Below are positions 43,175 to 64,000 of a stretch of DNA of 64,000 nucleotides, in pieces. The position numbers were made by a program, and so were the translations under genes. Origin of the DNA: Hadesarchaea archaeon (lineage in GTDB: Archaea; Hadarchaeota; Hadarchaeia; Hadarchaeales; Hadarchaeaceae); NCBI GenBank assembly GCA_004375695.1, contig SOKQ01000014.1, positions 2,067-66,066 of the forward strand, written 5' to 3'. The notes beneath the pieces were generated by a model. That model ran no database searches. It was not told the DNA's origin and saw only the letters and a list, made by a program, of their open reading frames with translations. How positions within the stretch are numbered: the first letter of the stretch is position 1; each line of letters opens with the position of its first letter.

Positions 43175-43182
43175 GGCACGTC

Positions 43183-44371: not shown

Positions 44372-44390
44372 ATCTTAATAAGTTCCTCGA

Positions 44391-44404: not shown

Positions 44405-44422
44405 ACCTAGTTGGCGATTCGA

Positions 44423-45573: not shown

Positions 45574-45959
45574 CAGACGAGAAGTGGGGAGTCGCTCATA
45601 TTTACTCATCGTTCAACAACACTATCATCCACATCACCGATCTCACCGGGGCCGAGACCGTGGCCCGCTGGTCGGGAGGCATGGTGGTCAAGGCCGATCG
45701 AGAGGAGTCCTCACCCTACGCGGCGATGCAGGCTGCGATGCGCGCGGCTGAGGAGGCGATGGAGAAGGGCTTCACGGGCATTCACATCAAAGTGCGTGCG
45801 CCGGGCGGGGGCGGTTCGAGGAGCCCTGGCCCCGGAGCGCAGGCTGCAATTCGAGCACTAGCGCGGGCGGGTTTAAGGATTGGGAGAATTGAGGACACCA
45901 CGCCGACGCCGCACGATGGATGTAGACGACCTGGGGGGAGAAGAGGCCGCCGAGTATGA
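45570..45959 (+). CDS. rps11: 30S ribosomal protein S11
   Basis: [18 protein letters not shown] motif. Confidence 0.95.
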
Positions 45960-45968
45960 GGTGAAAAA

Positions 45969-46757
45969 ATGGAACTCAAAATCCGAAAGCTCAAAGGTAA
46001 CGAGATGGAATTCGTGCTCTCTGGCGCTAACCCAGCCTTCGCGAATGCCCTCCGTCGGACCGCGCTGCGCGAAGTACCGGTGATGGCAATCGACGAAGTC
46101 GAGTTCAACGTCAATGATTCGGCAATGTACGACGAGATTCTCGCACACCGACTCGCGTTAGTCCCCCTTCGCACGCCCCTGAAAGGCTACAACCTACCCG
46201 GTGAGTGCGGCTGTCGGGAAGGGAGCTGCCCGAAGTGCAGCGTGGGCCTGACGCTCAAGCGCGAGGGGCCCGTGACCACACTCAGTGGCGATCTGAAGTC
46301 GACCGATGAAGAGGTCGTGCCGGTGAGCGGCTCGGTCCCGATTATCAAGCTCGAGAAGGGACAGCACCTCGAGTTGACTGCCATCGCGCGCTTGGGATTT
46401 GGCAAGGAGCACGCGAGATGGCAACCTGGGGTGGCCGCGTACAAGTACATGCCAGTGTTCGAGCTTGACGAAAAAGCGTGCGACGGTTGCGGTGCCTGTG
46501 TCAAAGCCTGCCCGGTGAACATCATCGAGCTCGCCGGAAAAAAACCGAAAATCAGCGATATAATGCTATGCACGATGTGCAAAGCCTGCGCCGAGGCTTG
46601 CCCGCCCAAAGCAATCCGAATAGGAAGCGATCCCACGAAGTTCATCTTCCACATCGAGTCGACGGGAAGCATGCCCCCCGAACAGATTCTCCTTAAGGCA
46701 ATTGGGATCCTCGAGGGCAAGGCCAATGAATTTTCAAAGCAAGTGAAGAAACTCTAA
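45969..46757 (+). CDS. rpoD: DNA-directed RNA polymerase subunit D (Rpo3) with ferredoxin-like Cys clusters
   Basis: 262 aa; CDGCGACVKACP and CTMCKACAEACP motifs. Confidence 0.95.
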   Translation: MELKIRKLKGNEMEFVLSGANPAFANALRRTALREVPVMAIDEVEFNVNDSAMYDEILAHRLALVPLRTPLKGYNLPGECGCREGSCPKCSVGLTLKREGPVTTLSGDLKSTDEEVVPVSGSVPIIKLEKGQHLELTAIARLGFGKEHARWQPGVAAYKYMPVFELDEKACDGCGACVKACPVNIIELAGKKPKISDIMLCTMCKACAEACPPKAIRIGSDPTKFIFHIESTGSMPPEQILLKAIGILEGKANEFSKQVKKL

Positions 46758-46795
46758 GAAGATTAAAATCTACACAGCACATAATTTTGCTTGGC

Positions 46796-46902
46796 GCGGG
46801 GGTGGCCGAGTCAGGTCAAAGGTCTAACGACCGACTAAAGGTGCCAGCTTGAGGGGCTGGTCCCGTAGGGGTTCGCGGGTTCAAATCCCGTCCCCCGCAC
46901 CA
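46796..46902 (+). tRNA. tRNA-Leu(GAG), class II, with ~19-nt insertion (intron) in the D-arm region, CCA encoded
   Basis: Acceptor GCGGGGG/CCCCCGC, anticodon arm CCAGC-TTGAGGG-GCTGG, variable arm tcccgtaggggttc, T-arm GCGGG-TTCAAAT-CCCGT. Extra tctaacgaccgactaaagg lies between GTCAAAGG and TGCCAGC. Confidence 0.7.
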
Positions 46903-46953
46903 TTTTACCAGTAAGCTATTTATGGGCCAAAATCTATCTAAATTTGGGTTTGA

Positions 46954-47475
46954 ATGGGAAAAACCGAGACGATAAAGAAAAGGGCCGTGTACGTCTACCT
47001 GCCCTCAGAGGAAACGGCCGAGCGGTGGAAGCAGCTGGCCAAGCGATCTCACGCATCTATATCGAAGTTCGTCATCGAGCGCGTTGAGGACTCGCTCCAC
47101 GGGGAAGGGGAAGAGGGATACCCAAAGCGCGCCGAGCTCATAAAGCAATTGAAGGAACTCGGGGCAACTTTGGCGGCGCGTGAGCAGGAGAACGAGATTC
47201 TGAGACGCGCTTACGAGAGGCTGGACTCCGAACTCAGGCGCTACAGGGCTCAACCATTTCTCGAGGAAGGATTTCAAGGGGTGAGGAGATACGACCGGAA
47301 ATTGGTGAACGTGTTGAGGCAGGGAAAGGTCGTCGGCAGCGATGAGATACTGGAGAGGCTAGGGATCGAGCCCAGCGAAGCCGATTTGGTCAAGGCCGTG
47401 AGCAGGCAGCTTGAGGGCCTCGAGGCATACGGATTGGTAAAAGCCACCGCGAGGGGATGGAAATGGACGGGCTGA
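46954..47475 (+). CDS. RHH-like N-terminus / coiled coil / wHTH-like C-terminus DNA-binding protein
   Basis: 173 aa; KKRAVYVYLPSEETAERWKQLAKRSHASISKFVIERV (RHH-like); overlaps the integrase start. Confidence 0.45.
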   Translation: MGKTETIKKRAVYVYLPSEETAERWKQLAKRSHASISKFVIERVEDSLHGEGEEGYPKRAELIKQLKELGATLAAREQENEILRRAYERLDSELRRYRAQPFLEEGFQGVRRYDRKLVNVLRQGKVVGSDEILERLGIEPSEADLVKAVSRQLEGLEAYGLVKATARGWKWTG

Positions 47476-48428
47476 CTTTATCCCAGTATTCTGGGCAACA
47501 TCGGGTTCCCGGCACTCAGGAGCTGATCGGGGGATTCGAACAGGACTGCACGGACCGGGGGCTCACCGGGGAGACAACGAGGCACTACGTACACGTGCTG
47601 AAGCTCTTCTCGAGATTCGTCGAGAGTCAGGGCATCTCCCCCCTCGATGTCGACAAGTACGTGCTGAGGAATTTCATTCGACACAGGCGGGCCGGGGGGG
47701 TGGAGTCGAAGACGTTGAAGAACGAGCTATCAGCCCTGTCAGCGTTCTACGGTTATCTCTGCTTCGAGGGCCTCGTGCAGACCAACCCCATCTCCCCGGT
47801 CCGAAAGCGGTTCCTAAAGGGTTACAAGGGAGGGCTGGATGACCCGCAGAGGAAGCTGATTTCGGTGGGGGAGATGGCGAAGCTCGTGAACTCCGTGCTG
47901 GATCCCAGGGATAAGGCGATAATCCTCTTGCTTGCTAAAACAGGCGTGCGGAGGGGTGAACTCATATCCATGGATGTGGACGACATAGACTGGGCCAAAC
48001 AATCGATAATCCTCAAGCCCAAGCGGAAAAGAAGCAACAGGATCGTATTTTTCGACGACGAGTGCGCGAGGGCATTAAAGCGCTGGCTGAAGGTGAGGGG
48101 TGAGCTCAAACCGAAAACCGAGGCGCTCTTCGTCGGGGCTGGATGGGTTCGGCTGAAGCGAAATGGAGTTTACTCGCTCGTATGCAAGCACGCTCAAAGG
48201 GTCGGGCTTCACGATTCCAAGTCGCCCAAGCTCGAAGATCATCTCACTCCGCACTGCTTCAGGCACTGGTTCACGACGTGGTTGCGAAAAAATGGGATGT
48301 CCCGCGAGTTCATCCAAGAACTCAGAGGGGACAGGCGGAAGGAGGCTATAGACATATACGACCACATAGACCGCGCTGAGCTGAGAAAAGCGTACTTAGC
48401 CTGCATCCCGCAGCTCGGCGTAGCTTGA
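47457..48428 (+). CDS. Tyrosine recombinase/integrase (XerC/D-like, non-partitioned)
   Basis: TGVRRGEL (Arg I), HLTPHCFRHWF (H-x-x-R), GDRRKEAIDIYDH (His/Tyr region); 323 aa. Confidence 0.85.
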   Translation: MEMDGLTLSQYSGQHRVPGTQELIGGFEQDCTDRGLTGETTRHYVHVLKLFSRFVESQGISPLDVDKYVLRNFIRHRRAGGVESKTLKNELSALSAFYGYLCFEGLVQTNPISPVRKRFLKGYKGGLDDPQRKLISVGEMAKLVNSVLDPRDKAIILLLAKTGVRRGELISMDVDDIDWAKQSIILKPKRKRSNRIVFFDDECARALKRWLKVRGELKPKTEALFVGAGWVRLKRNGVYSLVCKHAQRVGLHDSKSPKLEDHLTPHCFRHWFTTWLRKNGMSREFIQELRGDRRKEAIDIYDHIDRAELRKAYLACIPQLGVA

Positions 48429-48441
48429 TTTCTATAAAGGT

Positions 48442-49071
48442 TCAGCGGAAGGACCAAAACAATGCCGAGTCCAAGACCTTTGGATCCTCTTTTATTTTTT
48501 TCACGTCAAAGGTGATTGCAACTCGGAGTTTGCCGTCCTGGACTATTTTCTTCCTAAACTCCGGGCTCTCTGCCAGCACCTTCAAAGCTCTCCAAATGTT
48601 CTCCGAGAAACTTGCTAGGTCCTCTTTATCTGTTGGCTCAGGTGAGAGGTCAATGCAAATGTTTTCGGCTAGGCTCGTTCTAAGCCGCTCAACCCTCTCA
48701 CGTACTTTCTCATCCGCGATGTATGCGTGCTTCGAGCCGAGAAAAGCTGCGGTAAAGCCGAGTAAAAGCCTATGAGTCTTTGATTTGCTCATGAAATGAC
48801 TCACAAGACCGAGACGCCTAAGTTCCGCTTCTACCCTTTTGTTTACGGCTGCTCTTAAAGGTGACTCGGAAACTGAGCTGAGTACTTGGAGCCCCAAGAG
48901 AGTTGTTCTGTATCCTTCATCACTTTTCTCCAAGAATTTCGAGTCAACGAGTTCATTTAAATGTTTGTTCAATGTTTTATCCGTAACTGAGAGCGCACTC
49001 TTTAGCTCAATCCATCTCATTTTCTTCTTTGAGCATTCAAGAAGAATTTTCTTCTTTGGTTCGGTTAACAT
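48442..49071 (-). CDS. wHTH-domain protein with unknown C-terminal domain
   Basis: N-terminus MLTEPKKKILLECSKKKMRWIELKSALSVTDKTLNKHLNELVDSKFLEKSDEGY is wHTH-like; start moved to the second Met, consistent with an upstream TATA-like box. Confidence 0.5.
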   Translation of the reverse strand: MLTEPKKKILLECSKKKMRWIELKSALSVTDKTLNKHLNELVDSKFLEKSDEGYRTTLLGLQVLSSVSESPLRAAVNKRVEAELRRLGLVSHFMSKSKTHRLLLGFTAAFLGSKHAYIADEKVRERVERLRTSLAENICIDLSPEPTDKEDLASFSENIWRALKVLAESPEFRKKIVQDGKLRVAITFDVKKIKEDPKVLDSALFWSFR

Positions 49072-49132
49072 AGCAGGGCACCCCATGCAAAGTATTTATG
49101 GGCTACGGTATAAAAAAGTACTGGTGCTGTGC
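49072..49132. promoter_or_regulatory. Divergent promoter region with two TATA-like boxes
   Basis: cataaata on the minus strand (49093-49100) and tataaaaaag on the plus strand (49109-49118), between the divergent genes. Confidence 0.3.
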
Positions 49133-49438
49133 ATGGTATACCCTGCCCTGCCAAGAAAAAGCGTTAAAAACCACGGTGTTCAAGGCCTGGGAAAATGGGA
49201 GGAGGCGGTCGGGAAGATCTCGGCCGTCGATGAGAGTTGCGGCTTGCTCACCGTTGAGTTGAACATCGGTTCTCTGACATTTCCAGCTGATAGTCTTGAG
49301 GCGAATACTATCCGTACACGTCTGAAAAACGCTGCAGGGGACACCGTGGCCATTTTGCGTACAGATCTGGCTAGCCAGCCCATTGCCGTAAGAATCCTCG
49401 AAAAGAACAAGGTGAATTCGGGTGGCGGGGGTGATTAA
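49133..49438 (+). CDS. Small hypothetical protein (~101 aa)
   Basis: Non-overlapping part of ORF 48839..49438; stop lies 1 nt before the ATG of the next gene. Confidence 0.35.
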   Translation: MVYPALPRKSVKNHGVQGLGKWEEAVGKISAVDESCGLLTVELNIGSLTFPADSLEANTIRTRLKNAAGDTVAILRTDLASQPIAVRILEKNKVNSGGGGD

Positions 49439-49439
49439 G

Positions 49440-50408
49440 ATGGAATGGTGGATTCCGTTAATCGCCGCAGTTACTTGGACGCTTCTCCTTTTGCGCGATG
49501 TCCAGAGAAGGCCCCTCACCGGCTGGGGTGATCTACTTACCGAGCTATTAGGCGCATGGGTGGGCTCATTCTCGCTCTACATCGGGGCCCATCTCATCAC
49601 GACGAAGGTGATCGCGCCGCTTATCAAGACATGGGTCGTGCCATCGCTCCAAGTAGTGCTGGGAGTTGAGTTGGGGTGGTTTGCTCTCTTTTTTACCATT
49701 TTTTCACTCCTATGGCGAAAACTTGGCAAGACTACAGAAGAGAAAATGGATGCCGAGTGCAGAGCGGTTGCAAAACTTTGGAAGAATGCGGAGGAATATA
49801 TAGGGAGGATGTGGGAGTGTCTGGAGGAACTAAAAAAGAAGACCAACCGTCAAAAAAATGAGCAGAGAACCGGACACCAAGAGATCCTACAGCTTTTTAG
49901 AGAACTTAATAATCGTTTACAGAACCTTGCGGATCAAATTGCTGAGCTACCAAAAAAAGCGTCGATCGTAGGGGAGAGGGTGAGGGTCGAGGGGTTGGAG
50001 TGTCAGGGGTGGTCCGCCCAGCTATTCAGGAACTTCGGGTTCGATGTGGAGAACAAGGAGGGGCTCGGGGAACCCGACCACATCCTTCGCTTAGGCGGGA
50101 GGATAAAGTGCGTCGTGGCCGCAAAGAATTGGCGAATAACTAACCAGAACTGGACGGTGAACGAGGAAAGGATACGCCCGGAGTTGAAGCTGGCGAGAAC
50201 GCGCAAAGTTCCTCTAGTTGTCCACGTCCGGAACAAGGAGAACAACAGGAACTTCTTCCACATCTTCCGCGCGGATGGGCTGACCGAGGAGTGCAAGGTG
50301 ACCACTCCAGATTGGCTCAGGAGGGGGGATCTCTCGGAGGGCGACAGGCAAAAGATGATGGAGAATTATAGGCGGTTCCACCGCTTTGTGGATGAAATTA
50401 CTCGGTAG
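49440..50408 (+). CDS. Membrane-anchored coiled-coil protein with C-terminal Hjc/PD-(D/E)xK-like nuclease fold
   Basis: 3 predicted TM helices (MEWWIPLIAAVTWTLLLL..), heptad-like region (EELKKKTNRQKNEQ..LQNLADQIAEL). C-terminal GERVRVEGLECQGWSAQLFRNFGFDV..GEPDHILRLGGRIKCVVAAKNW resembles the Hjc E..PD..ExK layout, but with AAK. Confidence 0.5.
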   Translation: MEWWIPLIAAVTWTLLLLRDVQRRPLTGWGDLLTELLGAWVGSFSLYIGAHLITTKVIAPLIKTWVVPSLQVVLGVELGWFALFFTIFSLLWRKLGKTTEEKMDAECRAVAKLWKNAEEYIGRMWECLEELKKKTNRQKNEQRTGHQEILQLFRELNNRLQNLADQIAELPKKASIVGERVRVEGLECQGWSAQLFRNFGFDVENKEGLGEPDHILRLGGRIKCVVAAKNWRITNQNWTVNEERIRPELKLARTRKVPLVVHVRNKENNRNFFHIFRADGLTEECKVTTPDWLRRGDLSEGDRQKMMENYRRFHRFVDEITR

Positions 50409-50940
50409 TGCGATTTTCATTACCCGCTACCCTAATAAACTCGTCTTTTGCCCATTTTCATTACTCAGTAAGACGGAACCAGAGGGCTTCTTTTCCAAAA
50501 TAGAAGGGCATATCTTGCTATTCAGTAGTTCGGACAGCATTACTGAACGTGCTACCGATTATTTTTCGGCCCCATCACCCTATATAGTAGATCTCTATGT
50601 ATGTCAATTTTCCACTGTATTTTCATGGCTCGTTTTTTGCCCGCTCGCATACGCCTCGGAATTTTTCCAATTTTCATTTGAAGAAAAATTCCTCGGCTTT
50701 GCTCGTTCGCGGTAGACTTGTTTCTCGCTCATAGTCTATCACGACTGCTCTTGCTCGTTGGACATTCGTCAGAGACAGAGACGCTGACGCTGGCGGTTAC
50801 AACGACGGTTAACTTGTGAGTGTTTTCATTCTTTTTTGTTATCTGCGCGCGGCTTTCTTTACGCGCGCGTCCCCGCCTAGCTTTTTGGGCGAGGTTTAAC
50901 TTCAGGTGCAAGCGGCGGTGTCGACCGAAGCACTGGCGCC

Positions 50941-51334
50941 ACAACTCCCCTCCCCGTCTTTTTTCTGCTCTGAAGGGGAGGGACGGGAAGAGAAGAGGGA
51001 ACGGGTCATGTCCCGTCCGGCGAGAAGGGAACCGCCAAGCCCACGCCGCGCTTCGGGAACGCCACGCTTCGGGAACGGGAAGGGAAAAGGGACGGCCCCC
51101 ACGCTCGCCTCCCGTCCCTTCACCACCCGTCCAGCGGCGAGGGGTCCGGGACGGGAAGGGACGAGGGAACGGGCAGTTTCTCGGGCGAGGTGCTCACCGT
51201 CTCCCCTCGCTTCCCCGCAGTTGTTTTTTCGCGCGTTTTTTTCGGGAGACAAAAGGGACGTGTCGGGAGACGGGAGGAGGGAGAGCGAAGGGAAGAGGGA
51301 CCGGGGAACCTCTAAGCAGCATTGGTCATTCGTC
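50941..51334 (+). repeat. G-rich/C-rich block repeat region A
   Basis: Alternating C-rich (ctcccctccccgtc, cctcccgtcccttcaccacccgtcc) and GGGA-rich blocks. Shares a 70-nt unit (51233-51302, 67/70 identical to 61144-61213) and an exact 20-mer (51314-51333 = 61094-61113) with region B. Confidence 0.8.
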
Positions 51335-51437
51335 GGGACTCAGGCTGGCGGACCTCAAGGAAGAGGATGAGGGTTAAATTTAGTAAGTTTACCTAGCAGT
51401 TCTAAACAGGCTGTTGTAAAAATGTGGAGAGGCAAAA

Positions 51438-51809
51438 ATGGCTTCGAGCAAAGAAGTTGAAAGGAAAGCGATTAAACTGGTAATGAAAAAGTTGCACATT
51501 GTGGATATTCCGCCTTACAAACAGGCCCCAGCCGACATACATGAAAAGGAAAATCAGAAGAAAAGAGCTGAAGCTTTGAAAACTGAAGCAGAAAAGCTAT
51601 TCGAAAATCAGATGAGGGGAAAAGTACACCTAAAAGTTGAATATCACAGGCATAAAGGGAGGTCTGACGCAGCCAACATAATCGGCGGTATAGCTGATGC
51701 TTTGAACAAAATAGCGTATGTTGATGATAAGCAAATAGTAGAAATCCATTACCATGAAGCATTAGGGAAAGTTGACGAGTACTGGGTAGAGATAGAGGAA
51801 GTAATATAG
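51438..51809 (+). CDS. RusA-like Holliday junction resolvase
   Basis: GRSDAANIIGGIADALNKIAYVDDKQIV matches the RusA pattern D-x-D/A-N-x6-DAL-x6-DD-x-Q-V; 123 aa. Confidence 0.55.
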   Translation: MASSKEVERKAIKLVMKKLHIVDIPPYKQAPADIHEKENQKKRAEALKTEAEKLFENQMRGKVHLKVEYHRHKGRSDAANIIGGIADALNKIAYVDDKQIVEIHYHEALGKVDEYWVEIEEVI

Positions 51810-51844
51810 GACTATGTTTCTGATCGATAAAAGAGGATAATAGA

Positions 51845-51994
51845 ATGGAGCATGGAAAATACACAAAGAAGCTGGGTGAAAACCTTATTGGAGTCTTGAA
51901 GGAAAGTCTTGGGGTTAAAGTTTTTCACGATCACGGGGGAAAAGATGCCCTCACCAAACTCGTGCGCCGCGCGTTCGATCCAAAGCAGGCCTGA
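51845..51994 (+). CDS. Small hypothetical protein (49 aa)
   Basis: ATG..TGA ORF (MEHGKYTKKLGENLIGVLKESLGVKVFHDHGGKDALTKLVRRAFDPKQA) on the same strand as its neighbours; competes with antisense ORF 51812..52132. Confidence 0.2.
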   Translation: MEHGKYTKKLGENLIGVLKESLGVKVFHDHGGKDALTKLVRRAFDPKQA

Positions 51995-52029
51995 ATATTT
52001 GGAATCCCATATTATTTCGGGGATAGAAA

Positions 52030-52314
52030 ATGGTGATTTGTAAATTCGTTGTGGGTGAGAAAGAAAAGCATGAGGTCGAGGTGGACACGGGCCGAAGTTG
52101 GTTTTTTCAAACACGCCCTTTCGCCATAACAATAGACGGGAAAGCTGTGGTTAAAAAACTCAAGTGGGTCAAGTTGACTGATAAATATCGTGCCACAATC
52201 GGAAACAAGGAAAAACACGAACTCGAAATAACAGTTAGATATCCTTCATTGGCATGGCGCGGCCCGGTTGTAGAAGCGTTTGTTGATGGGAAACTGCATT
52301 TTAAGAATGTTTAG
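52030..52314 (+). CDS. Hypothetical protein (94 aa, beta-rich appearance)
   Basis: ORF with internal repeat-like GEKEKHEVEVD / GNKEKHELEIT. Confidence 0.4.
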   Translation: MVICKFVVGEKEKHEVEVDTGRSWFFQTRPFAITIDGKAVVKKLKWVKLTDKYRATIGNKEKHELEITVRYPSLAWRGPVVEAFVDGKLHFKNV

Positions 52315-52375
52315 TTTACTCACCCGCCCAAGTTTTGTGCTGCAAAACTGGCTCCAGGGGCTCGCCCGGGGCATC

Positions 52376-52467
52376 GCCGTTTCCCCCCGAGCCGTTTCGC
52401 GCGCTATGGGACGGGACGGGTGGAGTGAATGAAGGGAAGAGGGAAAAGGGAAATTCATCATTTGGCA
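52376..52467 (+). repeat. G-rich repeat region C (R1 unit)
   Basis: gccgtttcc..ccgtttcgcgcgctatgggacgggacgggtggagtgaatgaagggaagagggaaaagggaaattcatcatttggca aligns with 60795-60884 with few differences. Confidence 0.8.
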
Positions 52468-52649
52468 AGCAACCTAATCCATAGACCCTCAAGAAGTTTC
52501 AAGTTTAAGCTGGCGTCAATTTGTTCATTTAAGATTTTTTTGTAAGCTTCAATATGTTTATTTTTGTAAGGTAGGACAGGCGGCAACCTTTGTAGCCTAC
52601 TTTGCAGTTCACTAACATGTTCTAAGGTTGCTTTGTTTTTATTTAAACT
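52458..52649 (-). pseudogene. Start-less 63-codon ORF in frame with and downstream of the HEPN gene
   Basis: SLNKNKATLEHVSELQSRLQRLPPVLPYKNKHIEAYKKILNEQIDASLNLKLLEGLWIRLLAK; no ATG/GTG/TTG near its 5' end; a related remnant lies at 60875-60955. Confidence 0.3.
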
Positions 52650-52673
52650 TTAAGCGCCCTACCCCACGTACAG

Positions 52674-53519
52674 TTACTTGCCAGTAAAAATACGATCCAA
52701 TTCGGCGATTTTCGGCTTTAGCCTTGGCTGCTCCCGAGGATAATAGTACCCGCTGTCTGTAAGGCCAAAATATTTCCTTTGAATCAAGTCGTGCAACTCG
52801 TGCAACAATTCATTATGAGAGCAACTATATGAAATATACTCCTCGTGCGTCAAAAGAACCGGTACTTTCTGTTCAGGATTTTTGCGAAATTTCAAATACT
52901 GTGGATGAAGTTTTATATTTCCATTAATTGGTATCGCTTGTTTTTCATAGGATTCGTGAAAGAGCCCGCGGTGATGCATGAAAAGATTTCGCAATCTTCT
53001 AGCCTCGTCGACATCAAGACATACCTCCGGCAATCTGTTTATCGCTTCCTTATAGCCCCCACTGTAGATGGATTCTTTATTAGGGATAACAAAATCAAAA
53101 GCCCTTTCCAAAAGAGTTTTGTATCCGCCGAGTTCTGGGTTTATACCTTTAAATATCGAATCATGTTCATTTTCGTTCAAATGTGCCGCAAATGATCGTA
53201 GCGCAACTTCGAATATGGCAACCAACACTATTAGAGAAGAACGTGTATGGTAGAATTGAAATTTTTCATCCATTTGTTTAACGAGAATTTTCGGAGAATA
53301 TGTTATAACCCAACCGCGGGTAAAAGGAAGAACTTTTTCAGGAAGTCTTGAGATTTTATCTTCAGGAGATGCACTTTGAACAGATGCATTAACATATTGA
53401 AAATAACCAAGAACATCTTTCATCAAATAATCAGCAAATTCAAACTCGTCAAGTATTTTAATATCCCGACCCAAATTGTCTCTTTCCGCCTTGTGTTCCT
53501 CGCTCTTTTCGCCAGTCAT
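52674..53519 (-). CDS. HEPN-domain protein (Abi-like predicted RNase)
   Basis: 281 aa; Rx4H motif in EARRLRNLFMHHRG; helical C-terminal half. Confidence 0.55.
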   Translation of the reverse strand: MTGEKSEEHKAERDNLGRDIKILDEFEFADYLMKDVLGYFQYVNASVQSASPEDKISRLPEKVLPFTRGWVITYSPKILVKQMDEKFQFYHTRSSLIVLVAIFEVALRSFAAHLNENEHDSIFKGINPELGGYKTLLERAFDFVIPNKESIYSGGYKEAINRLPEVCLDVDEARRLRNLFMHHRGLFHESYEKQAIPINGNIKLHPQYLKFRKNPEQKVPVLLTHEEYISYSCSHNELLHELHDLIQRKYFGLTDSGYYYPREQPRLKPKIAELDRIFTGK

Positions 53520-53647
53520 TCTCCCGCCACCACTACCCGGTCTTTATTCTCTTGCTTGTGTTTATGAAAGTATGTTCTAAACCGCGTCACAGACGTGAAT
53601 CAAGCGCCCGCGCCCGACTTTCTACTGCAGATTGGAAAGTAAATTGT

Positions 53648-53917
53648 CTATGCTGGCTTTAAATATGCCAAATACTTCTTTTCCCCATCGAGGAGCATAC
53701 ACTTGCCATCTGGAGTGGGCTCGCCACCGAGTTTCATGCAAGTTACGCGGTCCACCCTAGTCACCTCACGATCTCGCTCAGCAATACACGTGACGAAATC
53801 ACGTGCGACGTTGATGAACCCGTAGAACGGTCCGCCTGTGACCGTCCCCGCAACACCCGCGGGTGCTGCCCTCTTGGCGCACCTTACAGCCTTCTCGATT
53901 CTTTTTTTGTTTTCCAT
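53648..53917 (-). CDS. Hypothetical protein (89 aa)
   Basis: ORF only; GC-richer than its neighbours. Confidence 0.3.
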   Translation of the reverse strand: MENKKRIEKAVRCAKRAAPAGVAGTVTGGPFYGFINVARDFVTCIAERDREVTRVDRVTCMKLGGEPTPDGKCMLLDGEKKYLAYLKPA

Positions 53918-54138
53918 TTTTATCGCCGATTGAACCGGCTCATGTGCCTATTTAAGTTTTTAGTGCTGCACTAAATAGCACCAAATATCTTTATGCCCCA
54001 AATCACGACCTGCGCCCAAACTCCCTACCGCAGCGGGTTAGGTTGCCGGTCCGGGTGGTTTGGCTTTCTCGTTCTTTTGTATCCGACACCCTAATTTAAT
54101 TTGGTCATAAGCCTATTCATTTTTAGTGGTGTGGGAAA

Positions 54139-54861
54139 ATGGCAGAGGACCTAGTTACAATATTTCTGATAGGTATACTGGGTGTCGTCGTCGGTGGTAT
54201 AATCACTTTTGCGGTACAAAGAAACCTTCAAGAACGAGAGTGGAGAAAGAAGAGAGCAGAAGAAATTTACGCGCCTCTTTTAGATCAGTTAAGCGACATT
54301 GAAGCAAATCTTTATAAATTGACAAAGGACCCATCTTACCCTGAATGGAGCAGGATGAGAGAAAAACATTTAGTGCATTTTATTGAACCAAAACTTAAAG
54401 ACAGACTTTTGACCCTCTTCATAGAGTTACATAATTTCAATATTTACCTCAGAGTAGCGATAAATAGGATAAAAGAACCAATGAAAAAAGAGATTTTACA
54501 AAGATTAAAAGAAGAGCATAAGGATGAGGTTCAAAGAAGCACACCTTTCTTAGATGAAGCGTTTTTTTGGGACGGGTTTGCTAAACTCGTTCTTAAAAAA
54601 GAGGACAGTGGAGGATTTTTTGGGTTTATACATGATGCGCCTTTGCTGGAAAAAGAGTATGGTGAATTAGAAAAACATTTTGAAACGAGATATCCTTTCG
54701 ACGATTTTATAAAGGATTTTGCTTCAAAAATTAAGGATGATCCCTTTTTTAGGGATGGGGATTTTAAAAGGGAGTTACGGGATCTCGTTGCCAAAACTCA
54801 AGAATTGAAAGGCGAGGTAGAGAAAAAATTGGGAATTTTCAAAAAAGAGGAGTGGGACTAA
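54139..54861 (+). CDS. Hypothetical N-terminally membrane-anchored helical protein
   Basis: TM helix LVTIFLIGILGVVVGGIITFAV followed by a charged helical region; 240 aa; AT-rich. Confidence 0.45.
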   Translation: MAEDLVTIFLIGILGVVVGGIITFAVQRNLQEREWRKKRAEEIYAPLLDQLSDIEANLYKLTKDPSYPEWSRMREKHLVHFIEPKLKDRLLTLFIELHNFNIYLRVAINRIKEPMKKEILQRLKEEHKDEVQRSTPFLDEAFFWDGFAKLVLKKEDSGGFFGFIHDAPLLEKEYGELEKHFETRYPFDDFIKDFASKIKDDPFFRDGDFKRELRDLVAKTQELKGEVEKKLGIFKKEEWD

Positions 54862-54862
54862 T

Positions 54863-55369
54863 TTAACTGCTTAAAACAAGCGCCCAAGGTAATATTGGGT
54901 TCGGGATTGCTCTATTCTCAAAGAAAAAATGTGCATTAATCGGGTCACGGGGGTGTAATCTTTCCCTAATTTCGGCGTTCGGGCCTGGGTGATCGGGAAA
55001 CAGGACGATCCCGACCGATGACTCATCCGTCTCATGGGCACTCCACCCCACGCTGGTCGGCCGTTCCAAGCGCCACATACCACCGCGCTTTCGGGCGATC
55101 ACAGGCGCGGCACATTTCACCTCGACGAAAGTGGGAGGGGATCCGCGGCTTCCTAATAGCGCCACCCTACCCTAACCCCTAGCATAGCCCACTAGTGAAG
55201 TTTTGGGACTCCCAGTTTTTTCCTGCTCGTCGGAACCCACTTTAGACTTCGAACCCCACATACCCGGGGCGAGCAATTCACCGACGCGCGTTGGAATATG
55301 CGCAGAGGATAACAAGAAAACAAGCATATGTACTCTCAGCAAGGCAATCAAAAGTATATGCCACACCAA
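54863..55369 (-). pseudogene. Hypothetical ORF interrupted by one in-frame TAG
   Basis: ORFs 55172..55369 and 54863..55165 are in the same frame, separated by TAG at 55172-55174; the patch is GC-rich within AT-rich surroundings. Confidence 0.3.
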
Positions 55370-55654
55370 CCATCTCCAAAATCGAGAACCCTCATGGCCC
55401 GAGTTTTGGATGGTTCATGCCAAACGTGTAAGATTTTTTCAGTATGTTTAAGTGTCTTACCTAAACAAGAGATCGGGTTTCTGATTATATGTACGCATGG
55501 TCTCTTTAGAGGAAGAATATTTGCTCTTGGAACAAAATATAGCCAGTAGTTTTTGCTGAATCCCCCGGGAAATTGAACGTATAACCAAAATGTTTAAGGT
55601 AGACTTGAACAAATAAAAAATTGACTGGGGGCTAGAAATTAGAGGTCGAGAAGT

Positions 55655-56254
55655 ATGTGTAAATCTCTCCTGTCCAGTATCCATGATAAGTTCTACTCCT
55701 TGAAATTGCCTAGTGAACCATCTAAAAATCTTGTTGAGAATTTGAGCGATAAGCAAAAGCAACTCTTGAGTAAATCTATCATGCGACTTGCTTTTATCAA
55801 GAGCTTAAATGCAGATGAAAAACTTGTTGAGTATACCAATGCAATTCGCGTTTCACTGTTCACGCCGATATGTGAGAAATGGGAGCCATCAAAGAAAGAT
55901 ATTGAAAACAAAGTTAGGGATTTCTTTAGATTGGTTGATAAAAAAATAGTGCGAGAGCTGGACAGTTCTTTTAAAGTGTATAACGGTGAATCTAAAGATT
56001 TCGTTTGGGTACTTACCCACACTAGGCACAATACGATTCACCTAGACACCAACACTATACTCCCAGAAGCTGATGGAGCAGTTTCCTTAAAACATGGAGA
56101 AAAGCCCCCAACCATGATGACGGGGTTCAGAGTATACGTTAGGAAGGAGGATAGGAATTATTCTATCACCTTCCATAAATCGACAGATAAGGTTATTGAT
56201 TTGTTAATCAAATCTTTTGCTTCTTACCTAACCAATAAATTTTCTTCACACTAA
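55655..56254 (+). CDS. Hypothetical protein (199 aa)
   Basis: AT-rich ORF; no recognisable motif. Confidence 0.4.
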   Translation: MCKSLLSSIHDKFYSLKLPSEPSKNLVENLSDKQKQLLSKSIMRLAFIKSLNADEKLVEYTNAIRVSLFTPICEKWEPSKKDIENKVRDFFRLVDKKIVRELDSSFKVYNGESKDFVWVLTHTRHNTIHLDTNTILPEADGAVSLKHGEKPPTMMTGFRVYVRKEDRNYSITFHKSTDKVIDLLIKSFASYLTNKFSSH

Positions 56255-56341
56255 ACTACAAACCTCACTATTACCCGACTTTTTCACAATCTCAGCCCCC
56301 TAGGTGCGTTCAAGCCCGTTTCGGGGCCTGAAAACGAGTCA

Positions 56342-56668
56342 TCAGTCCACGCCGTATCTTTCCAAACGTTTTTTAATTTCGAGAACTTCACCTATTTGTG
56401 ATGCCTTATACCTATGCAAGTCTCCATTAAAAGCGGAGAGAATCCCCCCCGCCATACCTACTGTCGCAATGATTCGGAGTATATTATAGGCTGGATTTGC
56501 TATAATTGCTATAAAAGTCACGGCAAAAATTGAGAAGAACACCGCGGACCAAGATATTGAAACGTAACATCTGCTTTTCTCAATACGATATTCAGCCAAC
56601 AAAAACTGAATGTCCTCTTTACGCAACTTTTGTTTTGGTTTCCAACGGGTTCGTCGACATAACTTCAT
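56342..56668 (-). CDS. Small 2-TM membrane protein coupled to the voltage-sensor protein
   Basis: Basic N-terminus, TM1 VSISWSAVFFSIFAVTFIAIIA, TM2 ILRIIATVGMAGGILSAF; ATG overlaps the upstream stop (ATGA). Confidence 0.5.
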   Translation of the reverse strand: MKLCRRTRWKPKQKLRKEDIQFLLAEYRIEKSRCYVSISWSAVFFSIFAVTFIAIIANPAYNILRIIATVGMAGGILSAFNGDLHRYKASQIGEVLEIKKRLERYGVD

Positions 56669-57144
56669 GCGCGATCCCTCCTCTCGCCCCTTCGTCGTCG
56701 GAATTTCTTCACCGTCTTCCTCAGCTTTGGCATCTTCCGTGCTAGCTTAAGTGCTTTCGCCGCTTTGGTGACCTTCGCTGCCTTTGTAACCTTTACAACT
56801 CTCGTCACTTTCGCAACCCTAGCAACTCTCGCAATTCTGGCAACCCTCGCTACCCTGAACAGCCTAAACGCGCGGATTATGCTCATCTCCATTACAAGGG
56901 CTGGAATCGAACCCAAGATGTCTGCCCAGCTATCGCGTAGGCAGCCCCTTTTGGATGGCGCCTTATGGAACCTGAGACCGAACTCGGTTATGAAGATCGC
57001 GCATACCCCAAGGTCAATCCATCCAAAAAGCCCCTCTTGTTCGGGGGTCGGCTCGAAAACGAGCGACACGACAAGTAAGCTCAGCGCGAAAATCGCCAGC
57101 CCAGCCATCGCAATATCGGTACCTCCTAACTTTTCTTGTCCCAT
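56665..57144 (-). CDS. Stand-alone voltage-sensor domain (S1-S4) protein, no pore domain
   Basis: S2-like WIDLGVCAIFITEFGLRF, S3-like SWADILGSIPALV, S4 RAFRLFRVARVARIARVARVAKVTRVVKV... with R/K at every third residue; ORF ends in a basic tail. Confidence 0.65.
   Translation of the reverse strand: MGQEKLGGTDIAMAGLAIFALSLLVVSLVFEPTPEQEGLFGWIDLGVCAIFITEFGLRFHKAPSKRGCLRDSWADILGSIPALVMEMSIIRAFRLFRVARVARIARVARVAKVTRVVKVTKAAKVTKAAKALKLARKMPKLRKTVKKFRRRRGERRDRA
56740..56874 (-). repeat. Degenerate 9-nt (3-codon) periodic tract encoding the extended S4 helix
   Basis: About 15 consecutive units of ARR-GTN-GCN type (agg gta gcg / agg gtt gcc / aga att gcg ...). Confidence 0.7.
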
Positions 57145-57326
57145 GGTTCCCCAGGATTGATTTAGCTAAGGCACCTAAAACCAATATTCAAGAGCCAGAG
57201 GGCTTGCTCGTTCGATGGTATTCAAAAGAACCTGAATAATCCGCGATTTATGGGTCAGCGCCGCGCCCACATAAGTGTTTTTAAAAGCAGAACTTAATAT
57301 GAATTTGAAAAACGCACCGTGATGAA

Positions 57327-58526
57327 ATGAACAAATTTACTAACTTGATAATTGATCCTTCGAACCTTCGGTCGCTTTTTCACCCACAAAATAAATTTAT
57401 GATTTTTAAACGTTTAGCAGTTTACGAAAAAATTTACATAGATAAACTTTTAATGACTCAAACTGCGGAGATTGTGGGAAATAATGTTCTTAAAAATGTT
57501 TTAAAGAAACTAGAAAAGCGCAATCTAGTAAACTACATTGACACAACCCAAATTATTAGAAAAAATTCAGGTAAATATAAAGAATGGTTTGAAGATGACC
57601 TAAAATTGTTTGAAGACAATGTGCTGAATATGTGGCTTATCAGGAGGATTAAAGAAAAAAATTATGTGGTCCCCTTATTTCAAACATTGGGTGTTCAATC
57701 GTTATTATCTCATCTTAGATATGCGCAAAAGAAAAATGGGATCTTACTTATTCCTCCATGGCTGGTGGAAGAGGCCATACAACTTTCAAAGAAAATCAGC
57801 GATTTGGATACCGAAAAATTAAAAGCAGGTATTAAGCACGTGTTCGTGAGCAGTTTTCTTATTAGAGAATATGCCCCTCGCTTTCAGATTGATAAAGAAA
57901 ATATTGCAGTTTTTTTAGATGCAATCAAAAAATCGTCATATCTAAATGATTTTGTCACTCTGAAAGTAAAGGAATTCCGAGGTTATTTGCTGCGAGAAGC
58001 AGAGAGAGAAAGTATAAAAAGAACTATATCGCGCGCCGAACAAAACATGTTAGAAATAAAGAACGGTCTTCTAAGAGATTTAAAAATGGATCTAGGTTTT
58101 GATCTCGCTTCGGATGCTGTCCGCGCTTTGATTTCGAGTTCGATTCCAGGCGTAGGGGCCGCGAAAACCCTAATTACTCATGCTACTGAAAAACATAGGA
58201 TTAAAAAACAAAAACTGGAATGGATTGTTTACCTACGGATTATTAGGGCTTTTCAAACAAAAGGGGAAGAGAAACTAGGCCCGTGCGATATTTGCGCTCT
58301 TTCCATGAGTGAAATTAATAGCATGAACGAGGAAGAAGCCGAGAGCATGGTTTTCTCAGGAAGCATGTGTGAAGGTCATACCATCCTTTACTTAAACATA
58401 AGAAAACAAACTCAGGCTACTGGGAAAGATTTGCTTAGACTTATGAAAAAATATGAAAATTCAGAGGCTCACCGCTTAGGGGCCCCGCTCGGTGGAGCAT
58501 TCATCTGGAAAAAAAGAGAACACTGA
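57327..58526 (+). CDS. Hypothetical protein (399 aa), very AT-rich
   Basis: Long uninterrupted ORF in AT-rich DNA; divergent from the voltage-sensor operon; no motif recognised. Confidence 0.5.
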   Translation: MNKFTNLIIDPSNLRSLFHPQNKFMIFKRLAVYEKIYIDKLLMTQTAEIVGNNVLKNVLKKLEKRNLVNYIDTTQIIRKNSGKYKEWFEDDLKLFEDNVLNMWLIRRIKEKNYVVPLFQTLGVQSLLSHLRYAQKKNGILLIPPWLVEEAIQLSKKISDLDTEKLKAGIKHVFVSSFLIREYAPRFQIDKENIAVFLDAIKKSSYLNDFVTLKVKEFRGYLLREAERESIKRTISRAEQNMLEIKNGLLRDLKMDLGFDLASDAVRALISSSIPGVGAAKTLITHATEKHRIKKQKLEWIVYLRIIRAFQTKGEEKLGPCDICALSMSEINSMNEEEAESMVFSGSMCEGHTILYLNIRKQTQATGKDLLRLMKKYENSEAHRLGAPLGGAFIWKKREH

Positions 58527-58556
58527 ACCTTCTTTCCCCACCAGTTTTAAATATGA

Positions 58557-58700
58557 AAAGAACGATGGGGCACAAATCATTACGTCGATGCGTTCTGCGG
58601 AAGGGTGCCGAGAAGCGTGCTGGCGAGGCACTACACGGACTTCTCGTCGGAACGGTTGAAGCGGATATACGATGGTGCGGGCCTGAAGGTGCTCGAATAG
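58557..58700 (+). pseudogene. Integrase C-terminal remnant (plus strand)
   Basis: Hand translation KERWGTNHYVDAFCGRVPRSVLARHYTDFSSERLKRIYDGAGLKVLE, preceded by an in-frame TGA. Confidence 0.55.
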
Positions 58701-58931
58701 ATTTGATGGCAGGACGGGGACATAGAAACTCAAAAACAACCAAATGGACAACCGAGGAAAAATTGGCGCATGAGGCGGGTGGTACGGGGAAACCCTGAAG
58801 GCAGAGACAGCAACTGAGAAAAGCCTCCAGCAGCAGTAATTGATGCTTTGCCTCGATGGGCTGTTTCTTCATCTCATGCATGGTATTTGGTTTTGTGCGG
58901 ACAAATCAGTCCGTAATCACATTCCCCGCAA

Positions 58932-59324
58932 TTAGCGGAGGGGCATGCCGTGAATTCTTCTGACAGGATGCTCTTCACGACACTTTTTATTTCCTCCTTG
59001 GGATCCACCACTCGCGTACATGTACAAAATTATTGAGCTAGTAAATAGCAATAAGATTCGGGATTTATCCAATAAAAAGCTTAGAGAAATCGGGAGAGAG
59101 CTTAATTTTTTCCCTGGCGCTAGAAAAATCACGTTGTATTTGGACATTCTCTTGCTGAAATTAGTAACATGCCCCCTGCCAGTAATCAAGAGTACTTTTT
59201 CCGCATGGGGAGCCGGCTTGTATATTTTTTTAAGCCTTCCTCCCGAAACATCAATGTTTGGTTCTTCAACAAGTCCTGCCCCCCATAAAATTTTCAAATC
59301 TCTCCGTTTTGCAGCCCCAACCAT
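58932..59324 (-). CDS. Hypothetical protein
   Basis: ORF only; AGLVEE..GGRLKKIY is faintly wHTH-wing-like. Confidence 0.2.
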   Translation of the reverse strand: MVGAAKRRDLKILWGAGLVEEPNIDVSGGRLKKIYKPAPHAEKVLLITGRGHVTNFSKRMSKYNVIFLAPGKKLSSLPISLSFLLDKSRILLLFTSSIILYMYASGGSQGGNKKCREEHPVRRIHGMPLR

Positions 59325-59388
59325 CTCTTGTAGTGCCCCTTACCCCCATGTGGGCGCCAGAGATCGCGGGATTTTGGACCCCAATAAG

Positions 59389-59796
59389 TCAGGCCCGCCC
59401 AAACCATCCTTTCATGGCGTTGTTCTTGCCGGACATGTTAATGGCAAATAATCCTAAGATTGTTGCGAATACTAAGAGGTAACCTGCTTCTTGTGTTGCG
59501 TCTAAGATCATCAAACCACTGATGAAGGCCAATCCAACAGCAATAATACCCACGATTCCACCCACCCCATGAACTTTTTTCAAAATTGTTAACGTGTATG
59601 TAAGGGACAAGATAGACAAGGAAAATAGTAAGATTGAAATCACATATGGTGGGATACTAAGACCACCCAACGCCCCAAGGATCGTGCCATATGGGTCTAG
59701 CCCTGTCCTCAGGAATAGCCCCCCCACAAAACCCGTAAAACCTCTTCCGCCCAACAAGGCATCATTCATTAGTTTTCTCTTTTCTTCTGATGTCAT
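59389..59796 (-). CDS. Hypothetical polytopic membrane protein (135 aa)
   Basis: Gly-rich hydrophobic segments (GIVGIIAVGLAFISGLMIL, YLLVFATILGLFAI). Confidence 0.45.
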   Translation of the reverse strand: MTSEEKRKLMNDALLGGRGFTGFVGGLFLRTGLDPYGTILGALGGLSIPPYVISILLFSLSILSLTYTLTILKKVHGVGGIVGIIAVGLAFISGLMILDATQEAGYLLVFATILGLFAINMSGKNNAMKGWFGRA

Positions 59797-59965
59797 GTTT
59801 ATCCCACTAGAACCCGCGCGTCATTTTTTAAACGGGTTCCCACCCACCCATTATCTTCCACAAGCCTCCAGCCCCAAGGCTTGACCGCCAAGAACCTTTA
59901 AAACCTTACTTCCGGGCATGTCTTACGTTATTCTCGACGCTACTTTTTTGGTTTTCTAGAAGTTA

Positions 59966-60373
59966 CTAGATTCTAGAAGTTACTATAAAATAAAAAACCC
60001 CAATAACCAAGACAGGGATTGCATAAAACCAGAGTAACAAGTCTGGTGGAATTATGTTCATCTGGTGGATAAGCGCTGCTAAGAGTGTAAATGCTATCAC
60101 CCCACTGAGCAAAAACGAACTTGCGCGGTGTAAACGAGTTTCTCTCTGCTCTTCAATTTTTCCTGCAACGTCGAATCCCTTTCCAGTTAATAGTACCCCA
60201 TAGTAGTTGTGCTCAACTAACTTCTGTTCTTTCAAGAATCCCAAATTGTGTATTAATTCTTCATCAGAAATTTTCAATATTCCTTTCAATTCCTTAAACC
60301 AACTACTATTTGTGAATTTCGGTGCAAGGGAAAAATCTGCTCTCTTTTTTCCTCGTTTAGACTCAGTACCCAT
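59966..60373 (-). CDS. Hypothetical protein with C-terminal 2 TM helices
   Basis: Start set at MGTESKRGKK within ORF 59966..60514; C-terminal ASSFLLSGVIAFTLLAALI and LLLWFYAIPVLVIGVFYFIV. Confidence 0.4.
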   Translation of the reverse strand: MGTESKRGKKRADFSLAPKFTNSSWFKELKGILKISDEELIHNLGFLKEQKLVEHNYYGVLLTGKGFDVAGKIEEQRETRLHRASSFLLSGVIAFTLLAALIHQMNIIPPDLLLWFYAIPVLVIGVFYFIVTSRI

Positions 60374-60749
60374 GGACTTTCTTTGGTATATTACAAGGAG
60401 AATTTTTTTCCAACCCGTCCTAATTTTCAGCCCTTTCTTCCGACGAGTTCGCCAAGACGACTTCATGCACAACACAATTAATCCATTATGGGCCCCACTT
60501 CTTAAAACTGCCACGAGGTAGAAGATACGAAAGAACCTTTGATTTATCTTCCCCTCCGAGTTCCGTCGTCGAACCCCGAAAAAATTCAGAATTACTTTTT
60601 ATCTTTTTCTATTGGCGTGATTGTGATTTCTGTTGGGCTTTTACCCATGCAAATGAGCAATTTGTTAGTTTTTAACCAATTCGAAATCTTTGCTTGATTT
60701 AACTTACACAACAGTGCTTTTATCCGGAGAAACGAGGTCGAACTCGCGC

Positions 60750-61262
60750 GGTTATCCCTGCCCTCCCCTCACCGCCCTCACGTCCCTTCCCCCTGCCGTT
60801 CCCCCAGGCCGTTTCGCGCGCTATGGGACGGGACGGGTGGAGCGAATGAAGGGAGGAGGGAAAAGGGAAATTTATCATTTGGCACGGAGAAACCAAACAC
60901 GCCCGTCCTCAAGCCCTTTCTTTCGTGAGTATTCTAGCGGGGGGAAACAGGAGACGGGAGAAGGGAGAGCGATCAGTCAGGCATCATCGTTCCAGCATTT
61001 TCCCTCCTCCTCACTGTCTCCCCTCCAGCGCGATTTTTTTAGGGACCAAGGACGGGTAGAGGGAGAGCGAAGGGAGGAGGGAGAGCGAATTTCAAGCAGC
61101 ATTGGTCATTCGTTTCGTTTTTTTCCCACTTCACGTTTTCTCGGCGTTTTTTTCGGGAGACGGAAGGGACGTGTCGGGAGACGGGAGGAGGGAGAGCGAG
61201 GGGAAGAGGGACCAAGGAAGGGAGAAGGGATCTAAACATCAGCCAAGTGCCATCCACTCGTT
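60750..61262 (+). repeat. G-rich/C-rich block repeat region B
   Basis: Contains the R1 unit (60795-60884), the 20-mer (61094-61113), the 70-nt unit (61144-61213) and further diverged GGGA-rich units. Confidence 0.8.
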
Positions 61263-63680: not shown

Positions 63681-63808
63681 TTAAGAAAGCACCCGCAGAT
63701 TTGCGTTGTCGTATATGCACTTTAGTCGTTCGGGGCTGAAATCCGTGTAGCGCCGTGCTAAGATTGACCTCGGACTCGACGGCAAAAACGCGCCAAAAAC
63801 CAAGCAGA
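63681..63808 (-). pseudogene. Integrase C-terminal remnant (copy 2, more decayed)
   Basis: ...VLARRYTDFSPERLKCIYDNANLRVLS; counterpart of 43183-43323. Confidence 0.5.
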
Positions 63809-63983
63809 TTAGCAACGCTTTTTCTTTTTCGACTTTTTCTTCTTTCGCATCATAGATTTCACCATTGGAACATGTTCTGAGAAGATAAAAGACTTTACCA
63901 TAAGTTCATCACCTTGGCTTCAACAACCTCGTCGATTTTCGCGCACCTTTACACGAGAACCTTCAACCCCGCCTTATCGTAGA
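63685..63983. repeat. ~300-bp repeat, copy 2
   Basis: Aligns with 43199-43501. Confidence 0.8.
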
Positions 63984-64000
63984 CCCGGCGTTTCCCCGAG
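63949..64000 (-). CDS. 3' end of a second SSV-type integrase gene (continues beyond the window)
   Basis: ...SGKRRVYDKAGLKVLV stop; parallels ...SSERLKRIYDKAGLKVLV of int(C) at 43467. Confidence 0.5.
   Translation of the reverse strand, partial: SGKRRVYDKAGLKVLV

Follow-up and report, generated by a model that had tools for sequence, protein, structure and literature searches.

A lineage-specific system of non-coding repeats marking probable recombination junctions of a variable island in a Hadesarchaeon

The window analyzed here is a stretch of 64,000 nucleotides (nt) from a Hadesarchaea archaeon, located on contig C34 (GenBank SOKQ01000014.1) of a 66%-complete metagenome-assembled genome (MAG) of 630 kb. 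From about 50.9 kb to a point just past its right end, intergenic tracts made of C-rich and G-rich blocks are interspersed with the genes of an accessory island. With a probability of roughly 0.6, these tracts are dispersed, partly duplicated pieces of a longer non-coding region, named Z below and found uninterrupted in a sister strain; Z would belong to the pool of accessory islands and mobile elements of this Hadesarchaeal population, and its pieces would provide portable homology and junction sequences at a recombination hotspot of the island. The tracts form a lineage-specific repeat system, which marks recombination junctions of a variable island.

A preliminary description of this DNA reported a family of repeats at three positions, all on the same strand. 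Sequence comparison within the window bears this out: every repeat described is present, in the same orientation, and the shared units go far beyond chance. The segments 51233-51302 and 61144-61213 differ at 3 of 70 positions (67/70 identical), and the similarity extends to an alignment of 80 nt between 51223-51302 and 61135-61213 (93.8% identity, E about 1e-30). The 20-mer AAGCAGCATTGGTCATTCGT is found exactly at 51314 and 61094, where 0 occurrences are expected by chance, and a unit of about 90 nt is shared, at 93.5% identity, between 52376-52467 and 60795-60884. The distances to neighboring genes are also those reported: 104 nt separate the end of tract A from RusA (51438) and 132 nt that of tract C from a methyltransferase gene (61394), and the short tract at 52376-52467 begins 62 nt past the RusA module. 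In addition, a fourth tract (D) starts at 63986, runs past the end of the window and reaches about 64600, in window numbering, on contig C34. It is opened by a third copy of the 90-nt unit (63986-64069, corresponding to C34:66052-66135), which straddles the window end. This shared unit of about 85-90 nt, with three copies on C34, is referred to as the B-unit. Copies of the tract units are mutually 84-96% identical, and a G-rich 17-mer, GGGAGRRGGGAGAGCGA, occurs 5 times, always on the plus strand, against 0.07 expected occurrences.

A block map of the tracts revealed a common grammar, in which a C-rich block, a T-run and a G-rich block follow each other, three to four times per tract. Tract A (50937-51338, plus strand) contains the modules A1 (50937-51006), A2 (51071-51173) and A3 (51193-51302), and its tail carries the exact 20-mer (51314-51333). 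Tract C (60750-61262, plus strand), the most complete copy within the window, is composed of C1 (60752-60884), formed by a C-block and the second B-unit copy, C2 (60935-60973), C3 (60996-61113), which ends in the 20-mer, and C4 (61135-61232), which is 93.8% identical to A3 over 80 nt; T7 runs are located at 61034, 61118 and 61147. The first B-unit copy (52376-52467, plus strand) is isolated, between the convergent 3' ends of a gene of 94 codons on the plus strand and one of 281 codons on the minus strand. In tract D (plus strand, with 63986-64000 inside the window), the third B-unit copy is followed by a G-block (64117-64172) and by an inverted pair of palindrome-like sites with G-strings, at 64448-64471 (minus) and 64525-64547 (plus); the right end has an AT-rich stretch, followed by a truncated MCM paralogue. 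The palindrome-like site, CATTTCAC-N5-CGAAAGTGGG(AGGGG), has a third copy at 55113-55135 (plus strand), and these three copies, all in the island, are the only ones genome-wide. The region of the third site is 88.6% identical to tract D over 44 nt. It falls in a non-coding stretch of 790 nt (54862-55654), part of the 8.3-kb block between the first and second B-units, whose left half is GC-rich and which contains one such site; no Rfam match was found in this stretch.

The composition of the tracts is strongly asymmetric. Six T-runs of at least 6 nt are present on the plus strand of tracts A-C, together with no A-run of 5 nt or longer. Canonical G-quadruplex motifs (G3+ N1-7 G3+ N1-7 G3+ N1-7 G3+, a sequence pattern only) are abundant, as 7 of the 24 found in the entire 630-kb assembly fall within about 1.6 kb of tracts; by this pattern, the tracts are putative quadruplex-forming DNA. 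Tandem duplications of 15-16 nt, pointing to slippage, are also found within sequences of this type (51043-77 in the window). A coding function was rejected: the long open reading frames (ORFs) that cross the tracts derive from the rarity of stop codons in this composition, and the copies differ by indels of 1-2 nt.

All the copies are confined to contig C34, between about 50.9 and 64.6 kb, on one strand and in one accessory island; none was found on the other 36 contigs of the MAG, nor in 100 relatives. In other genera of this order, weak BLAST matches to the G-rich unit correspond to GC-rich coding DNA, unrelated to the tracts. Scans for exact patterns of the B-unit core and of the palindrome-like site gave no match in collections of viral and species genomes, while a similar scan of metagenomes gave a single one, on contig L018, whose source strain shares 98% identity with this genome. 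Outside this MAG, among the relatives and public collections searched, tract units are known only from assemblies of the same species. The palindrome-like motif was found nowhere else in the genus outside coding DNA. It was also considered as a genus-wide origin box, and rejected: the only recurrent near-match has three mismatches and lies inside an ORF of 1151 codons, which in our reading encodes the large subunit of DNA polymerase D. Within the order, a single RusA relative was found, in the same-genus genome G004, and its surroundings contain no such tracts; no description of them was found in the literature. The preliminary description had suggested, among other options, a mobile non-coding element; in the sense of a miniature inverted-repeat transposable element (MITE) this does not hold, given the confinement of the copies to one island. 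MITEs and other repeats derived from insertion sequences, which would show numerous dispersed copies bearing terminal inverted repeats and target-site duplications, were rejected on the same ground, and neither a transposase gene nor constant termini were seen. Similarly, clustered regularly interspaced short palindromic repeats (CRISPR) were discarded, as inspection of the tracts showed no repeat-spacer periodicity and no Cas domain was detected among 20 ORFs scanned against Pfam; the same 20 ORFs contain no reverse-transcriptase domain, and a diversity-generating retroelement was discarded as well.

The decisive evidence comes from other assemblies of the same population, all of them built from short metagenomic reads. 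Their comparison revealed that homology between strains switches inside the tracts, and that five assemblies display five different configurations of Z. In C34, the left flank (left1) is followed by tract A and by RusA. JGI contig 1738389 and the window are 100% identical only from 51129 to the right, an identity that continues through RusA, the 8.3-kb block, a restriction-modification (RM) pair, tract D, an MCM gene of 600 codons and a proteasome gene; to the left of that position the contig has its own diverged A1/A2 modules and a different gene array of at least 36 kb, entirely on the plus strand. The third configuration, contig L035 from a second sample, has a left side of the 1738389 type up to the window equivalent of about 51173, beyond which one unbroken non-coding region of about 1 kb, here named Z, precedes unrelated genes. 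Contig L061 comes from a fourth run and has 96.7% identity; toward RusA it shows first a B-unit, then a D-like block and more modules, and finally an A3-like block, and a second B-unit is located after RusA, past the 94-codon gene, so that two B-units flank a module of 1.44 kb including RusA. Finally, L018 contains segment X (integrase remnants, described below), a B-unit and C2/C3-like blocks, followed by an integrase fragment; it is 92.5% identical to the window over 60938-61082 of tract C, and its B-unit shares with the first copy a 77-nt core that is 100% identical. A further contig, JGI 1612379, corresponds to 37460-51166 of the window and stops at 51166.

The breakpoints at 51129, about 51173 and 51271 all lie within tract A. 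By our own count, about 7 of the 14 homology breakpoints between assemblies are in or at tracts, which make up about 9% of the island, and most junctions are seen again in independent assemblies from other runs (L024, L025, L057, L059, L061 and L018). This recurrence bears on the view that the tracts are functionless low-complexity DNA growing by slippage, and that the switching of flanks reflects assembler mis-joins at repeats. Small tandem duplications and a (GTGTGA)n run are indeed present inside Z, many contigs end inside tracts and the join in C34 is unconfirmed. On the other hand, junctions of tract with unique DNA are shared by three to five independent assemblies, genes truncated at the edges lie within contigs, away from repeat overlaps, and L061 is a diverged copy (96.7%) with an arrangement of its own. 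We regard an origin by slippage and mis-assembly as highly improbable.

The order of elements in the Z region of L035 is A-like modules, the (GTGTGA)n run, a C3-like module, a C-block with B-unit, a D-like G-block, two inverted sites and an AT-rich stretch. The window tracts are collinear with it, in the order A, C3, B-unit and D, and tract D is 91% identical to the right end of the continuous Z over 158 nt. As judged from these alignments, the components of Z are the C-rich/T-run/G-rich modules, the B-unit of about 85 nt and, at the right end, the palindrome-like sites with G-strings beside an AT-rich stretch. The simple repeat of the (GTGTGA)n type spans 15548-15584 of L035.

Alternatively, Z could be a cis-acting region, serving as origin, partition site or operator in a family of integrative plasmids or viruses related to one another, in which the 17-18-nt G-rich words are iterons, the sites bind an initiator or regulator, and the partial copies derive from tandem, Campbell-style integration of related elements through Z. 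The iteron-like 17-mer, repeated five times on one strand, fits such a region, as do the two inverted sites with G-strings beside an AT-rich stretch, just upstream of MCM; the inverted sites and the B-unit are moreover the parts best conserved between strains (89-93%). Z also stands at the end of the unidirectional array of at least 36 kb, found left of Z in contig 1738389 (L034 7191-9140 and L062), which encodes ParB (ParB_N), a 942-residue PKD protein, NrdD, ASCH/YAcAr proteins, an N6/N4 methyltransferase, DUF2201, an ATP-dependent DNA ligase, Ku and PLD, and looks like a large Hadesarchaea virus or plasmid with its own end-joining pair. However, in L035 Z precedes the 3' end of an unrelated gene and not MCM, and the island MCM is itself a truncated copy of the host gene (600 versus 671 residues, about 90% nucleotide identity, with the first codons replaced). 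Two inverted sites and an AT-rich stretch, as in archaeal origins with origin recognition boxes (ORB), are present without an adjacent orc1; no orc1/cdc6 or Rep gene adjoins Z, the host orc1 is on contig C12, and the host mcm-orc1 region has different repeats. The restriction of the site motif, in the rest of the genus, to coding DNA also speaks against this role, and the blocks between tracts are mosaics of fragments rather than whole replicons. A cis-acting region of this kind is possible, if unlikely.

Genes are truncated at the edges of the tracts. A fragment of 609 nt (51339-51947, plus strand) contains the tail of a nuclease gene, the RusA promoter region, RusA and part of the next gene. 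Its homologues L023 and L033, 95.9-97.2% identical to it, have no tract and carry on the other flank a gene of 172-175 codons; 60 nt upstream of RusA they contain a full PD-(D/E)XK nuclease gene (PDDEXK_1). In the window, 51339-51377 represents the last 12 codons of this nuclease gene, fused to the 20-mer of tract A, and homology to L023/L033 stops again at 51947, inside the next gene, of which the 5' part remains. A second case is provided by segment X (63685-63987, minus strand), which consists of remnants of the C-terminal tail of a tyrosine integrase and a small basic ORF: the integrase tail is cut 12 codons in, at 63987, where it abuts the third B-unit copy, and the same junction between X and B-unit is present in L018. 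Two more fragments are known from other contexts, 52616-53568 and 59130-59873. The latter, a segment with a gene for a 135-residue membrane protein, matches at 99.3% identity a portion of L058 (SRR31055124), an unrelated contig in which its counterpart sits about 1.8 kb from a proteasome gene; by this similarity it is another captured fragment.

The RusA homologues lacking a tract are informative on a further option of the preliminary description, that of shared leader or non-coding RNA (ncRNA) sequences. Three of the four tracts lie upstream of plus-strand genes, and local hairpins of 80-110 nt can be drawn, which would suit structured ncRNAs or shared 5' leaders regulating the downstream RusA, methyltransferase and MCM genes. 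Yet the RusA homologues without tract (96-97% identical) keep the same 95-nt upstream region, one B-unit copy lies between convergent gene ends, and internal T7-T10 runs are expected to stop the archaeal RNA polymerase. With Rfam 15 at gathering score, only 5S rRNA and tRNAs reach the threshold across the window, and searches of tracts A-D by E-value gave either nothing or sub-threshold microRNA-like hairpin matches. Single-sequence folds of the tracts, on both strands, were no better than those of shuffled sequences (z-scores +0.24, -1.57, +0.16 and -0.90). C-blocks pair with their own G-block no better than with any other (permutation p=0.80), and 0 compensatory pairs were found among five B-unit copies, on either strand. 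The leader or ncRNA option was not sustained by these results and retains very little credibility. Scans for bacterial-type terminators and promoters gave counts at or below shuffled expectation.

The B-unit deserves separate consideration, as it could be the core att site of a tyrosine recombinase, with three direct copies marking the serial insertion of the 8.3-kb and RM blocks. Its three copies in the same orientation flank these two blocks, its ends are fairly discrete, a core of 35 nt is identical in four copies, and in L061 a pair of B-units flanks the 1.44-kb module including RusA; integrase genes and their remnants are abundant in the island. Neither of the flanked blocks, however, contains an intact integrase (only remnants are found), and the unit is unlike a tRNA gene. 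Insertion at the B-unit would place a Z-type C-block to the left of the first copy, but it is the second copy that has one there. Moreover, the breakpoints at 51129, about 51173 and 51271 are outside the unit, and in L035 its left third is replaced. An att core within the B-unit is accordingly very doubtful in our judgement. As for the preliminary suggestion of att scars, an att site is at best conceivable for the B-unit, on weak evidence, and not for the tracts overall; what stands of that suggestion is recombination scars of related elements, in view of the switching of flanks inside tracts, the truncation of genes at tract edges and the collinearity with the non-coding region of the sister strain.

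Under the interpretation of the tracts as pieces of Z, partly diverged copies in the same orientation would offer portable homology, and recombination between them would insert, delete and swap gene blocks among related elements and strains. Such exchanges would be homologous or homeologous, the candidate mechanisms being RadA-type recombination and low-specificity recombination by an integrase, as reportedly carried out by the integrase of Thermococcus pTN3. Illegitimate joins at tract edges would trap fragments of other loci. The composition of Z, prone to form G-quadruplexes and hairpins, plausibly makes it prone to breakage, and this would account for its illegitimate joins to truncated genes; a further probable effect of the T-runs is to stop transcription of the plus strand between blocks.

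Several points weigh against this interpretation. The strain comparisons depend throughout on short-read assemblies. Contig 1612379 stops at 51166, only 37 nt past the switch at 51129, and no independent contig links the integrase and RusA sides; the join of C34 at 51129-51166 (C34:53195-53232) may therefore be an assembly chimera at a repeat. Recombination is deduced from relationships between sequences, rather than from any event or product observed directly. The copies are 84-96% identical, not identical, and hence are not fresh target duplications. The ends of the B-unit are rather discrete in five copies, a better fit to a site-specific site than to random homologous crossover. Finally, the primary role of Z may be that of an origin, operator or terminator array, recombination being a mere side effect.

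The left flank of tract A in C34 contains, in order, rpoD, a tRNA gene with a probable intron (46796-46899), a gene of 173 codons, a gene for a Xer-like integrase (47457-48428), which in Pfam matches the generic Phage_integrase and SAM-like domains, a winged helix-turn-helix gene and two orphan genes. The tRNA genes at 46796-46899 and 6338-6451, detected by Rfam and missed by ARAGORN, measure 104-114 nt, a length that suggests introns. To the right, three blocks split Z: the RusA fragment, the 8.3-kb mosaic, and the RM pair with integrase remnants, the blocks between units measuring 0.9, 8.3 and 3.1 kb. The first contains an intact RusA gene (51438-51809; Pfam RusA, E=4.7e-8) and small ORFs. 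The second contains 11 ORFs on both strands, including the 281-codon gene (52674-53519, minus strand; labelled HEPN-type in the first, sequence-only reading), a gene for a voltage-sensor-like protein and orphans. The third carries an Eco57I/TaqI-type methyltransferase gene and a partner gene of 285 codons.

Segment X, directly left of tract D, is 92.9% identical over 308 nt to 43199-43505, beside the integrase of an element inserted at tRNA-Ser(GGA). This element (42130-44371) is bounded by direct repeats of 69 nt (42159-42227 and 44303-44371) and has an SSV-type partitioned integrase, with an N-terminal piece at 42141-42479 and a body at 43634-44362, both on the minus strand, and a tail that extends, in a different frame, to about 43468. 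The corresponding tRNA-Ser element of another strain (L028) carries a relative of the 281-codon gene (87% nucleotide identity). Past tract D, from the window equivalent of 64708 onward (L026 9313-11115), the island MCM gene is a 600-residue paralogue with about 90% nucleotide identity to the host gene, in which about 77 codons are missing and the N-terminus is replaced; the host protein has 671 residues in the same-genus genome G002, and the host gene belongs to a glyA-mcm-orc1-polD cluster, on contigs C2 and C12.

No member of the Hadesarchaea is in culture, and hardly any work exists on their mobile DNA. The locus described here provides a strain-resolved non-coding site of gene-block traffic, involving defence genes, a resolvase and copies of host replication genes. 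On the practical side, the tracts break metagenome assemblies and may mis-join them, and contigs crossing them need care.

Some known systems share features with the tracts. Reiterated words of 17-18 nt on a single strand, G-string-bearing inverted sites, a neighboring AT-rich stretch and a helicase gene are shared with iteron plasmid origins and archaeal ORB origins, but here an adjoining initiator gene is lacking, the sites do not resemble the repeats of the host mcm-orc1 region, and adjacency to MCM is not kept in L035. In archaeal elements targeting tRNA genes (SSV-type and pTN3-type integrases), direct repeats bound mobile DNA and integrase remnants are found at junctions, and the tRNA-Ser element with its 69-nt repeats is a clean example in the same window; the tracts, in contrast, are not derived from tRNA, are much longer and modular, and differ between copies, with breakpoints that are not fixed.

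Arrays of integron attC sites (CALINs) are reported in 3-4% of Hadarchaeota genomes (bioRxiv 10.1101/2022.02.06.479319). As in integron arrays, repeated non-coding sites separate same-orientation cassettes, and a tyrosine recombinase is located at one end of the island. However, the tracts lack R''/R' boxes, their units do not form specific imperfect palindromes, the blocks are up to 8.3 kb long with genes on both strands, and the island integrase is Xer-like and adjoins a tRNA gene. A scan from 46.9 kb to the contig end for attC sites, defined by R'' (RYYYAAC) and R' (GTTRRRY) boxes pairing in the folded single strand, yielded nothing in the tracts and a single weak candidate, at 64615-64716 in the AT-rich stretch. 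An integron was rejected, also in view of the arrangement: arrays of short ORFs mostly in one orientation, with attC sites less than 4 kb apart, were not observed, the blocks being as long as 8.3 kb and occupying both strands.

A G-quadruplex-forming sequence upstream of pilE in Neisseria gonorrhoeae was reportedly described by Cahoon and Seifert in 2009 as initiating recombination. Both there and here, strand-specific, quadruplex-prone non-coding DNA lies beside a locus that varies by recombination between repeated copies. The pilE sequence, though, is a single 16-nt motif with a dedicated small RNA promoter and proven RecA-dependent gene conversion, whereas the tracts are arrays of degenerate modules, known here from sequence alone, and would be concerned with insertion and swapping of cassettes rather than conversion of a single gene.

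Finally, the switch (S) regions of immunoglobulin class switching are also same-orientation repeats on the kilobase scale, G-rich on the non-template strand and placed upstream of alternative gene blocks, with breakpoints scattered within the repeats and junctions of the end-joining type; in one variant of the island, genes for Ku and a ligase are located 6-8 kb upstream of Z. By this likeness, Z could be a dedicated recombination region, prone to G-quadruplexes and R-loops, whose breaks would be repaired by recombination or by end joining, capturing and shuffling foreign gene fragments; end joining could use the Ku and the ATP-dependent ligase encoded in the large mobile element. Such a specialized role is, in our opinion, quite unlikely. 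Organism and enzymology are wholly different, we know of no AID-like deaminase here, programmed switching is a feature of the S regions, and the comparison is to be taken as an analogy only. If the tracts are actively recombinogenic, they would represent an archaeal, structure-prone repeat serving as a site of gene capture, distinct from both the integron and the tRNA att site.

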